Of a stretch of DNA of 47,065 nt, positions 14,402 to 17,240 are shown piece by piece. The stretch spans positions 1-47,065 of the forward strand of contig CAXUUL010000046.1 in NCBI GenBank assembly GCA_964255285.1, in the 5' to 3' direction. The stretch is from Ionaspis alba. Its lineage: Eukaryota. A model generated the notes under the pieces. It had not been told where the DNA came from. It saw only the letters and a list, made by a program, of their open reading frames with translations, and searched no databases. Position 1 is the stretch's first letter. Every line of letters starts with the position of its first letter. The position numbers and the translations under genes were made by a program.

Positions 14402-17240
14402 TTAGCGTGCCCGCTGTTTGCCGCGTGCAACATCCGAAAGTGGCAGCTCTGGCTGAACAAATTCGATCGGAGACGGTGGAGACTCCTCTGTCCTTTTAAC
14501 AGCCTCCTTTGTCTCTGCAAACCGGTTGTATCCAGAAGGTCCAGCGACAGGTGGACTCGGGCTGTTGTGATAGCCAGCGTGATTGTTGCCGTTTTGTGGG
14601 ATGCGGCGAACCTTACCTTCCCGGTCAATTGGTCGGATGGTAGCGGCAGAACTGGAACATTTGGAGCTTTCAAGCGTCGGATTGTGAGGTTCTAGCGGCG
14701 CCATGTCTGCTCGGCGCTCCATTTTGTTGGGAGTTGCGACACCAAGCCACGAACTGCCTAAGCTTTCAGAGGTGGCTAAAATGGTTATTTTGTCAGCATT
14801 TGTGTTCCTGCCCAGATTATTAGATGGAGGTGTCCTTACCTGTCGGAGGCTGCTGAGCCTCCTGAGCCCAACTGTTATGGATCATAGAAGTAGGGCTAGT
14901 CATTGGACTGTCACGACCTGGCCAAGCCATATTGGAAGGCTGTTCGTCTCCCAGGTCCCGAAGGCGCTGTCGGAACCGCGCATTCTCCGATCGTGCATCT
15001 CGAAGCTGGTCTTTCAGGATCTCGAGCGATTCCTCTGTCATCGCAACGCACGTGAGGTCCAGGTTGGTCGTGAATTTCAACTGATGGGCAATTCCGTGTA
15101 GCTCAGTAACAAGGTCTTGGCTCTCTTGCAACTGTTGGTGAAGACCAGCGATCTCTTCATCCTTTATGCGGGCAAGCCAGTCAGATCTTTCTTCTGGAGT
15201 TCCCTGTCCCATGATCTCGAGAAGCTCTGTCAACTCATCGACTTTCTCGTTCAGCCCGGCGATGATAGCGGACTTGGAATCGAGCTCTTGCTCTTTATCG
15301 ATTTCGTCGAACTCTGTCTTCAAAGTTAGTGTTTCGATTTCTTGCTCTTTCTCGCTGATAGTTTCAGAGAGTTCCGTCATCCGTTGACTCTGTTCTTCGA
15401 TCTTCTCTTTAGCCATTTGGTGCTGGAGCTTCCAGTAATGAGTCCAGTGTTCTGCGCTTTGATGAGCTGCTTCACTCGTATTTAGCCTCGCACTCATGGA
15501 TTTCAATTCTCCCTTGGCCTCCTTGTGGCATTGCTTCAGTCTTTCCAGCATCTTGTCCTCGGATGGATACGCGGTCAACCCGGCGAACATCTGGTCATTT
15601 GACTTCTCTAGCTCCTGAATTCTTGAGAGATGAAAGTCTCTCGAAGCCTTGACACGAGCAAGGTCTTCTTGAAGAAACTGCACAGTCTCTTCGCTACGCT
15701 TCAGGAACTTCGCGTTTCGTGCTTCACTTCTTACGAACGCATTGTGCAGACCGGTGTGGCGCTGCTCGAGATTGGAATATTGTTCATCCTTTTGCGCCAA
15801 CAATTCGTCTTGGTCGACATGGTTTTCTTGGGGAGTCCCTTCTAATGCACTCTGCATCTGAATCATGCGGAAGAAATTGAGGTCTCCTTGGGCTTTAACT
15901 TCTGCGAATGTCTTCTCAAGCAGAGCTTTCTCTTTAAGGTAAGCTTCACACTTCGAACACTCGAGTGCCTTTGAGGGAGTACTGCTGGGCTTTTCGGTTT
16001 GCAAGCCCGCGATGATAGCAAGAAGCCGTGCATTCTCCTGGCGTAGATGGTTGACGGCTCGAGTGTCCTGCTCCTTTTTTACAAGCTGATCTCGGAGGAC
16101 TTGGCAAGATTTCTCCGCTACTTCTTTGGCACTGCTTTCCACACTCAGCTGCTCTTGAAGAATATTGTTCGTGAAGGCTGTAAGACGAGCAGACTCCTTG
16201 GCAGTCTCTAGGGCGTGGTACAGGTCTTGCAAATGCTGATTTCCGACTGCATCTTGCTCGGCGGTCTCTCCTGTATGAAAATCTTCAGGCATTAAGTCGC
16301 TGGTGTTGACTCGCATGGTATCACGCCTAGCCTCAGCACATGTTTTGTCCCTTGCTAGTTCATCCCCTGAAATGCTGGTATCAGAAACAGGATCAAATGT
16401 GACTGATTCTGTGCTCGAATTTGGGATTGATGTGCTGCGGGATTGGGTAATTAATTCCTCTGCCGAACTAGGACTTTGACTAGCCAAAACCTGTCGGAGA
16501 GGAAAGCTCAGTGGACGAGGCTTAGCACGATCCGACTCCGAAATGCTAGTTCTGAAGCTAGATTGTTCTGCCATATGTTCCATACTAGGAGTAAAGAGCA
16601 TGGCAATTGGACTATCAGGCTCAGACGAGACACGTTCGATCATGTTGTCTAGAAGTGACTGGTAGAAGCGGTCAGTCTCAAGCAAGAGGATTGAACACGC
16701 AGCGACAGAACAAGGTACATTGTACTTACTTCCCAGTGCGGCTGAGCTGCGTCAGCTTCTCTTGGATGCCTCTTATTGGTGTCTCGGTTGTCTTAGGTGT
16801 CATGATCTTGGACCAGATGTGATCTTGTGTTGAGATCTGCGGCGGAGCTATTGAGGGTCTCGTCTCCAACTTGTGGAATGTCAACACTTGGCGTCTCAAC
16901 ACCTTCGATGTTGTCATCAATAGACAACAAACCACCGATTCTGTCCGTAGGGACATCTGACGTGGTAGCCTCCTGAACAAGTCTTAGAATTCTCAAGCAA
17001 TAGCTGCCATAGACGTAGATATCTTACCTCCTTGCTGCGGGATATCTCAGCCTTGTGCAAGGTATGTGAAGCTTTTCTGAAGAAGTTGGCCAGTCTGACC
17101 AGCTTCGGTGTCTTCTTTGTAGGAGCCCCCTGTACTTGGTCAGTACCACAGGAGGAGCAGTAGGCTAAGTCGAAGTAGCTAACCTCGTGGACTGACTTTG
17201 ACTGTCCCACATCTGTGGCCTTCCAAACGCGTAGTCTCAT
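14402..17240 (-). pseudogene. Orphan coiled-coil protein B; exons 17240-17184, 17129-17028, 16972-16730, 16658-14840, 14775-14402; single in-frame TAA at 16793-16795 (pseudogene, recoded, or translated from ATG 16643)
   Basis: All four GT-AG introns preserve one frame (864 aa if read through). The 621-aa coiled-coil ORF splices in frame to the MERRADMAP ORF. Confidence 0.6.

Follow-up and report, generated by a model that had tools for sequence, protein, structure and literature searches.

Does a single in-frame stop codon in an otherwise intact fungal gene mark a site of recoding, or is it simply a nonsense mutation? The question is raised by a locus of Ionaspis alba in which a gene for a long-helix, coiled-coil-type protein is interrupted once, in its N-terminal part; the window, which is the whole stretch of DNA that was analyzed, comprises 47,065 nucleotides. 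An earlier note, made from the letters alone, had suggested that the gene may be gated by editing or readthrough, may be controlled by an upstream open reading frame (uORF) with reinitiation farther on, or may be a fresh nonsense allele or recent pseudogene.

The gene and its interrupted frame

Rereading and translation of the sequence bore out the gene structure as it was first described: five minus-strand coding exons join in frame into 864 codons and a terminator. The spliced coding sequence of 2595 nt (865 codons) contains two stops, one at its end and the other, the sole internal stop, at codon 113, where it reads ACC-TAA-GAC. The features, in the direction of transcription, are as follows.

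17588-17582, minus strand: candidate TATA box (TATATAA) upstream of the leader, from a reading of the sequence
17329-17255, minus strand: candidate 5'UTR intron, 75 nt, proposed from its GTAAGC donor, CACTAAC branch and CAG acceptor sequences
17240-17184, minus strand: coding exon 1, 57 nt, 19 codons, start ATG at 17240
17183-17130, minus strand: intron 1, 54 nt, in frame and stop-free, with GTTAGC donor, ACTGAC branch and ACAG acceptor
17129-17028, minus strand: coding exon 2, 102 nt, with a basic motif around K-L-V-R-L-A-N-F-F-R-K-A
17027-16973, minus strand: intron 2, 55 nt, with GTAAGA donor and TTCAG acceptor
16972-16730, minus strand: coding exon 3, 243 nt, carrying the premature stop and followed directly by GTAAGT
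16795-16793, minus strand: premature TAA, codon 113
16729-16659, minus strand: intron 3, 71 nt, with GTAAGT donor, GACTGAC branch and ACCAG acceptor
16658-14840, minus strand: coding exon 4, 1819 nt, with about 127 disordered residues first and long helices thereafter
16643-16641, minus strand: first ATG that follows the stop in the spliced mRNA, all frames considered; itself in frame, 78 nt past the TAA
14839-14776, minus strand: intron 4, 64 nt, with GTAAGG donor, TGCTGAC branch and TTTAG acceptor
14775-14402, minus strand: coding exon 5, 374 nt including the TAA terminator

All four coding introns run from GT to AG, and in three of them a CTRAY branch motif lies 14 to 21 nt before the acceptor. 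The open frame of exons 1 to 3 (402 nt) is more than would be expected by chance, since one stop or none was left in only 265 of 20000 mononucleotide shuffles (35 of the 20000 had no stop). The gene probably has six exons if the candidate 5'-leader intron is included: upstream of 17240 there are just two ATGs, at 17270 and 17262, both within that putative intron, and the leader (266 nt) is otherwise ATG-free, which is a weak sign given that 2466 of 20000 shuffles were likewise ATG-free. For exon 4, an AlphaFold model places helices at residues 128-221, 235-273, 283-360, 367-485, and 488-572 and gives residues 1-132 a pLDDT below 50. The terminators of 16 long open reading frames that we checked were TGA in nine cases, TAG in four, and TAA in three, and the gene's own terminator is a TAA that sits where the related protein P0006 also ends (C-terminal ...G-K-Q-R-A-R aligned with ...G-K-Q-R-A-I); in this organism, TAA thus serves as an ordinary terminator.

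Two alleles in the sequencing data

Confirmation that the stop is present in reads came from X1, a public sequencing run of short reads from which contigs were built independently and for which depth is given as k-mer depth. One contig (record 4; depth, 110.6) matches the window without a single difference over positions 16706 to 16908. A second (record 3; depth, 41.9) differs from the window at 20 sites over this interval, with no gaps, and one of these differences, an A>C on the plus strand at 16795, changes codon 113 to GAA (Glu); related sequence had been proposed as the place to look for a conserved stop or a TGG at this codon, and neither is found in record 3. In that variant, the modeled frame alone is open, through all 67 codons of the interval, while the second frame is closed by three stops, of which two are new, and the third by five. 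The two new stops also dispose of the frame beginning at ATG 16803 as the true post-stop frame, which in addition joins the frame of exon 4 at no AG.

These data bear on the suspicion that the TAA is an error of sequencing or assembly and that a sense codon stands at this place in the true genome. As the window is one assembled contig and the sample contains at least two related sequences, a consensus might in principle have combined them; against this, the independent short-read contig repeats the same letters over 203 bases at a depth of 110.6, it takes 20 differences rather than one to reach the alternative allele, and the window follows the major path of X1 at every one of the 20 sites that differ in the minor variant. 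We find an artifact scarcely credible. The locus is an instance of standing variation in a coiled-coil gene within one sample, in which the minor X1 sequence may stem from a second strain or from a related species.

The GAA of the related sequence means that the change at codon 113 is a G/T transversion, neither of the RIP type nor derived from TGG. A RIP-type conversion of CAA to TAA, which had been put forward as a source of the stop, is contradicted by this alternative codon, and the GC content is flat, at 0.43 to 0.54, across positions 12000 to 20000, which likewise led us to discard RIP.

The main path of X1 differs from the window at 14519, 14558, 14700, and 14738, so that the data of X1 are probably not just those of the window itself, although the run and the source of the window might share material. 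The TAA haplotype accordingly exists in two slightly different versions, one in the window and one in the X1 major path, so that the allele is not entirely recent and may be one that is tolerated or compensated. In another run, X2, window-identical pieces were recovered at a depth of 2 to 3, none of them over 16694 to 16807, and a third run, X3, yielded no piece that could be placed on the window. When the window was compared with the X1 variant in exon 3, pN/pS was 0.47 for the part that precedes the stop (Sd, 4; Nd, 6) and 1.9 for the part that follows (Sd, 1; Nd, 8), counts that are too small for a test; clear purifying selection was not seen over these few sites.

A long-helix family and the ancestral frame

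An exhaustive phmmer search of 1.84 billion representatives returned five proteins at an E value of ≤0.001, the best of them 42% identical to the window protein. The long-helix family as we define it consists of P0005 to P0010, P0012, P0018, and P0019, with E values over the helical region of 4.8e-135 (P0005), 7.9e-124 (P0006), 1.4e-11, 2.6e-11, 1.3e-07, and 2.6e-07. Word-based searches, in which coiled-coil words crowded the candidate lists, scored 8000, 7999, and 8000 candidates; they yielded one relative and, at an E value of ≤1e-5, three proteins, two of them new and one a member of the query set. Comparison with Pfam gave no match at an E value of ≤0.01 to any family, GRIP included, all hits being below threshold; a sequence search of the PDB gave no relatives, and scans of metagenome contigs with alignment A1 and with P0012 found no locus.

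The neighboring gene is 73 to 74% identical to its best relatives, and its best named relatives, at 65 to 68% identity, come from Trapelia, Xylographa, and Lambiella, all of which are lichen-forming; judged on such comparisons, the window groups with the Lecanoromycetes. The likely syntenic ortholog of the interrupted gene is 42% identical. The picture from these searches is of a small, fast-evolving family that has no Pfam match and has so far been met with in lichen-forming (Lecanoromycete-like) fungi, and the locus has value as documentation of that family. Fast evolution and the small number of relatives make loss-of-function variants plausible in such a gene.

The member that offers the most instructive comparison is P0007 from Lambiella insularis (MCJ1478209.1), which matches with an E value of 1.4e-11 over query residues 147 to 577 and carries in its source the name "GRIP and coiled-coil domain-containing protein 2," a name that no domain match backs here. 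Its N-terminal layout is similar, in that a basic motif is found about 27 residues in and a W-E-S-L follows after about 97 to 105 more, but it is only 22% identical to the window protein and contains no internal stop. At the spliced junction of exons 3 and 4, the window's ...P-H-W-E|S-L-L-D-N-M-I... resembles the I-A-W-E-S-L-V-N-E-I of P0007. When residues 1 to 135 of P0012 were compared by phmmer with all 2294 six-frame open reading frames of the window, the frame at 16652-16792 on the minus strand, which begins directly after the premature TAA, ranked first (E value, 0.54). The post-stop segment with 12 residues of exon 4 gave a Smith-Waterman score of 39 against the N terminus of P0012, which none of 2000 shuffles reached, and of 29 against P0007, which was reached by 63 of 2000; for the whole N terminus (residues 1 to 146), the observed score was reached by 6 of 2000 shuffles (P0012) and 65 of 2000 (P0007). 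The likeness of the post-stop segment and the junction to the N termini of distant members argues that the stop interrupts ancestral coding sequence. For exons 1 and 2, the likeness to the coding sequence of relatives is weak: the exon 2 frame ranked 6th of 2294 with a two-sequence motif profile, with a weak E value of 6.4, and its scores against P0007 and P0012 were reached by 347 and 123 of 2000 shuffles, respectively, which is again weak. P0012 itself may run through an in-frame intron after Y-W-E, where V-S would fit a GTAAGT.

The resemblance after the stop also weighs on the idea that the TAA never enters the coding sequence, either because another donor or acceptor removes the segment that contains it or because exons 1 to 3 are an untranslated leader. 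As many as 58 combinations of GT and AG, at least 40 nt apart, would drop the TAA and keep the frame, the AG of the TAAG itself being among the candidate acceptors. None of the 11 donor hexamers of these combinations, however, begins with GTAAG or GTGAG, whereas four of the five modeled introns begin with GTAAG, and the segment that would have to be removed is open in the X1 variant and resembles relatives in its post-stop part. That the gene model is wrong in either of these ways is, in our judgment, improbable.

Recoding, downstream initiation, and a nonsense allele

Programmed recoding would require readthrough of the UAA or an A-to-I edit of both of its adenosines, with the full-length protein made in some stages only. 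UAA followed by G is an efficient terminator context in yeast, and we know of no readthrough motif that it matches. In its known cases, fungal readthrough, as in the peroxisomal isoforms of glycolytic enzymes, relies on a UGA or UAG that is leaky and has a specific downstream context; it takes place where the normal coding sequence ends and is conserved. What such genes share with this locus is a frame that stays open past an in-frame stop; they differ in that the stop here is an internal UAA, followed by GAC AAC, and is not conserved, the relative having GAA. Set against these motif criteria, programmed readthrough is disfavored. The RNA fold over 121 nt around the stop does not stand out (z, 0.54; a fold at least as good was seen in 137 of 200 shuffles), and it leaves the UAA in a long unpaired stretch, outside any hairpin loop.

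In favor of editing, the gene is otherwise intact, and some filamentous ascomycetes do correct premature stops in the sexual stage, as described in passages of PMC11156358 and PMC10776026; the literature that we found does not include an examination of Lecanoromycetes for such editing, and the passage of PMC13199489 concerned is silent on editing in that class. According to the relevant sections of PMC11156358, however, premature-stop correction converts UAG to UGG, an edit of UAA to UGA keeps a stop, reports of sexual-stage editing come from Sordariomycetes and from one Pezizomycete, Pyronema, and no genome-wide editing was detected in Aspergillus nidulans or Botrytis cinerea. An allele in which TAG was changed to TAA is uneditable and mostly copied the deletion phenotype, in the part of PMC10776026 that deals with it. 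The genes corrected in this way resemble ours in being intact filamentous-ascomycete genes with a single in-frame premature stop, but in those genes the stop is a UAG that is edited to UGG, that often goes back to a TGG, and that in some cases is conserved between species (passages of PMC11156358 and PMC10776026), whereas here the stop is UAA, the alternative is GAA, and the stop is not common to the related sequence. The preferred U at -1 is present for the first A only, the second being preceded by A. The proposal of an editing-gated gene thus fares poorly, as the UAA would need a double edit and codon 113 is GAA in the alternative allele; editing of this sort is not known from the lineage. 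Recoding of either kind strikes us as highly improbable. An intact-looking filamentous-ascomycete gene with one in-frame stop is therefore not by itself a recoding candidate; the type of stop and a single related sequence sufficed here to favor a plain nonsense allele.

We consider it probable that the TAA is a genuine nonsense mutation in a real spliced gene and that the allele is a young null or weak one, a nascent pseudogene. This part of the earlier proposal gained from the presence of TAA in the independent X1 contig, from GAA in the related sequence, and from the resemblance of the post-stop segment to the N termini of relatives. A G-to-T change would have turned a GAA (Glu) codon into TAA, in a poorly constrained and probably disordered N-terminal part of the protein, and ribosomes starting at ATG 17240 would halt after 112 residues. 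A premature stop upstream of an exon junction is expected to provoke nonsense-mediated decay; this one lies 63 nt upstream of the next junction, and the mRNA would be a likely target. Loss of function would be the most likely outcome. The 751 downstream codons would still be intact because little time has passed since the mutation, although their lack of any further defect also fits a gene that still works. With an ordinary nonsense polymorphism or nascent unitary pseudogene, the locus shares a single point change to a stop through which relatives read, a stop confirmed in reads, the occurrence of a sense allele alongside it in the sample, and the lack of a second lesion, and we see no difference of substance.

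A minor route may preserve some function: initiation at the in-frame ATG 16643 would give a protein of 725 residues that has lost the N terminus and kept all helices. The stronger claim that the haplotype is still functional through this start, either by reinitiation after a 112-codon uORF or from an internal transcription start, seems to us unlikely, if less so than the readings set aside above. The context of this ATG, GACAACATGA, has an A at -3, and 725 codons follow; it is the first ATG past the stop in any frame, all helices of the AlphaFold model lie downstream of it, the frame past the stop is intact, and P0005, an open-reading-frame-type call in a relative, starts with a Met four residues earlier in the alignment. 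P0005 and P0006, however, look like unspliced open-reading-frame calls, so that their starts are uninformative as to the true start, and the upstream N-terminal sequence resembles the coding sequence of relatives, which points to the long form as ancestral. An open reading frame of 112 codons is long for reinitiation, which is generally inefficient past frames of such length. ATG 16643, as the first past the stop and in frame, might serve for reinitiation. A short dedicated uORF distinct from the main protein was dismissed, as the upstream frame has 112 codons and resembles the N termini of the family.

The nonsense allele remains our preferred reading, and the TAA/GAA pair would, if specimens were genotyped, provide a natural knockout with which to ask what the family does. 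The two versions of the TAA haplotype, the 751 intact codons, and the next ATG being in frame leave room, on limited evidence, for a maintained variant that switches to the 725-residue isoform from ATG 16643, which we think very improbable; still more remote is a double A-to-I edit in fruiting tissue, which, if true, would extend mRNA editing to lichen-forming fungi.

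Gene model and genomic setting

The minus-strand gene described in the earlier note, with exons of 57, 102 and 243 nt leading into a long coiled-coil exon, was present at 17240-14402, and translation of the spliced sequence confirmed its single internal TAA at 16793-16795, codon 113. The modelled elements are as follows.

17588-17582, minus strand, TATATAA upstream of the leader
17329-17255, minus strand, candidate 5'UTR intron (75 nt; GTAAGC donor, CACTAAC branch, CAG acceptor)
17240-17184, minus strand, coding exon 1 (57 nt, begins with ATG)
17129-17028, minus strand, coding exon 2 (102 nt)
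16972-16730, minus strand, coding exon 3 (243 nt)
16658-14840, minus strand, coding exon 4 (1819 nt)
14775-14402, minus strand, coding exon 5 (374 nt, terminator counted)

Spliced by coordinate, the five exons comprise 2595 nt with two stops in total, one at the end and one at codon 113 (16795-16793, minus strand; context ACC-TAA-GAC). The four coding introns (54, 55, 71 and 64 nt) have the donors GTTAGC, GTAAGA, GTAAGT and GTAAGG, all four end in AG, and three carry a CTRAY branch motif 14-21 nt upstream of the acceptor. A chance origin of an open frame as long as that of exons 1-3 (402 nt) is unlikely, since just 265 of 20,000 shuffles contained one stop or fewer (35 contained none). Intron 1 (17183-17130, minus strand; 54 nt) is itself in frame and stop-free, and its retention would add 18 residues with the frame kept. 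Only two ATGs lie upstream of 17240, both inside the candidate 5'UTR intron, whose splice signals are good; the 266 nt of leader downstream of TATATAA, minus that intron, contain no ATG, which is weak support because 2466 of 20,000 shuffles of this G-poor leader were also ATG-free.

The window is like any other gene-dense stretch of a fungal genome and encodes an inositol polyphosphate 5-phosphatase, DCP1, a lipid-droplet hydrolase, promethin, a proteasomal AAA ATPase, an MFS transporter, a cyclin and others, and GC content is flat around the coiled-coil gene (0.43-0.54). The long ORFs without a Pfam match at E<=1e-4 are listed below.

3265-5295, plus strand
32334-33302, minus strand
33521-34201, minus strand
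39524-40312, plus strand
41021-42148, plus strand

Relatives and coding status of the N terminus

The exon 4 product matched no Pfam family and, by sequence search, no PDB relative. An AlphaFold model from a nine-sequence alignment (mean pLDDT 64.6, pTM 0.25) placed residues 1-132 below pLDDT 50 and predicted five long helices after them, spanning 128 to 572; the predicted helices fit the coiled-coil label, and the model also points to disorder in the N-terminal region around the stop. The family is small: a word-based search found one relative, P0005 (621 aa, 43% identity), and exhaustive phmmer against 1.84 billion representatives (E<=0.001) found five, namely, P0006 (712 aa, 42% identity, E 7.9e-124) and P0007, P0008, P0009 and P0010 (21-23% identity, E 1.4e-11 to 2.6e-07). 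Two more, P0018 and P0019, came from a profile search. P0007 is annotated in Lambiella insularis, a lichen-forming fungus. The locus itself (14402-17240) had no product among the word-search or exhaustive phmmer matches, and it seems that gene calling on this contig left it uncalled, within the searched length range; the contig's own 5-phosphatase product was present in the protein collection (P0020).

The best named relatives of the neighboring 5-phosphatase (5808-8897, minus strand) belong to Trapelia, Xylographa, Ptychographa and Lambiella (65-68% identity), and its best other relatives reach 73-74%. One of these, the 5-phosphatase orthologue P0023 (73%), and P0006 each lie on a single ENA contig 46,386 bases long, and the two contigs are probably one. 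P0006 is therefore likely to be the syntenic orthologue of the coiled-coil gene, which, at 42% identity, evolves much faster than its neighbor. These comparisons suggest that the gene neighborhood is conserved and that its proteins evolve at widely differing rates.

P0005 and P0006 start within exon 4 and seem to enter or cross the last intron, as if called from unspliced ORFs; they are uninformative on the upstream exons. N-terminal extensions are present in P0007 and P0009/P0012. When residues 1-135 of P0012 were searched with phmmer against all 2294 six-frame ORFs of the window, the top match was, at a weak score (E 0.54), in the expected place: the ORF at 16652-16792 (minus strand), immediately after the TAA. 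In Smith-Waterman tests (2000 shuffles each), the post-stop segment, extended by the first 12 residues of exon 4, reached a score of 39 with P0012, equalled by no shuffle, and of 29 with P0007, equalled by 63; the P0007 match, W-E-S-L-V-N-E-I, crosses the modelled exon 3/4 junction (W-E, then S-L-L-D-N-M-I). The score of the whole N terminus (1-146) was equalled by 6 (P0012) and 65 (P0007) shuffles and that of exons 1-2 alone, a weak result, by 123 and 347, and exon 3 upstream of the stop found no support in either test (1414 and 247). With a two-sequence profile of the basic N-terminal motif, the exon 2 ORF ranked 6th of 2294 (E 6.4). From these alignments we conclude that the in-frame sequence after the stop, at least, is ancestral coding sequence; a coding role for exons 1 and 2 is plausible, if weakly supported.

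The stop codon in sequencing reads

Of the words sampled from 14300-17700, 95% occur in the public sequencing run X1. Its record 4 (203 bases, 16706-16908, depth 110.6) shows no differences from the window, so the TAA, for which the earlier note had sought confirmation in genomic reads, is present in reads and is no assembly slip. All aligned X1 depth is unlike the window at 14519, 14558, 14700 and 14738; X1 is therefore probably not simply the window's own source data, with shared material possible. A second run, X2, yielded window-identical pieces at depth 2-3, none covering the stop, and X3 had no contig matching the window in the 14300-17700 comparison.

A minor X1 sequence, record 3 (depth 41.9, with the length and span of record 4), has 20 differences from the window and no gaps, including a plus-strand A>C at 16795 that turns TAA into GAA (Glu); its source in the sample may be another strain or a related species. 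With the 20 changes applied, the modelled frame is open across 67/67 codons, two stops arise anew in the second frame, and the third is interrupted several times in window and variant alike. Between the two, pN/pS is 0.47 upstream of the stop (Sd 4, Nd 6) and 1.9 downstream of it (Sd 1, Nd 8), from too few counts to weigh. Elsewhere in the gene, the listed differences include both silent and replacement changes, together with a single 3-base deletion that keeps the frame. With TAA in X1 reads and GAA in a related sequence, the fresh nonsense allele proposed in the earlier note is the most likely reading: a young GAA-to-TAA change in a gene that evolves fast and is restricted to its lineage. 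Events of this kind are ordinary.

Differences between the minor sequence and the window fall in patches of ~10% divergence.

14448-14525
15501-15586
16736-16878
16891-17088 (18 differences)
17377-17420

Two intervals between patches, 975 and 1149 bases long, are each covered by one X1 contig, at depths of 112.9 and 124.5; because the arms have depths of ~100-132 plus ~40, we lean toward a minor sequence too diverged to align there, rather than an identical one. In exon 5, X1 has two paths (depths 84.3 and 42.8), the former with an in-frame 3-base deletion at 14483; each is unlike the window (14448-14525), and the gene's 3' end thus has at least three haplotypes.

Candidate routes around the stop

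An alternative intron that excised the TAA with the frame kept is a candidate route, and a scripted listing found 58 suitable GT...AG pairs; these, however, use 11 different donor hexamers, none of which begins GTAAG or GTGAG, whereas four of the five modelled introns, the leader candidate included, have a GTAAG donor.

Recoding of the UAA by editing or readthrough, also raised in the earlier note, is unlikely. A G directly after UAA makes for efficient termination in yeast, and TAA is a normal terminator here, closing the coiled-coil gene where P0006 ends too and 3 of 16 long window ORFs (TGA, 9; TAG, 4). Nor is the stop conserved: at codon 113, where a stop or TGG might have been kept, the related X1 sequence reads GAA. 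In the relevant passages of PMC11156358, correction of premature stops is UAG to UGG; editing itself favors U at -1 and hairpin loops and is known from Sordariomycetes and Pyronema, with none found in A. nidulans or B. cinerea. Passages of PMC10776026 describe TAG-to-TAA changes as uneditable alleles, most behaving like deletions. The passage of PMC13199489 that names Lecanoromycetes does not treat editing in that class. The 121-nt fold around the stop is unremarkable (z 0.54; 137 of 200 shuffles equally good or better) and leaves the UAA outside a hairpin loop.

Beyond the stop, the first ATG of any frame in the spliced mRNA is that at 16643, which is in frame and 78 nt downstream (context GACAACATGA; 725 codons follow); it could thus give rise to some truncated protein. 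The proposed nonsense allele would be either null or partly rescued by initiation at this ATG.
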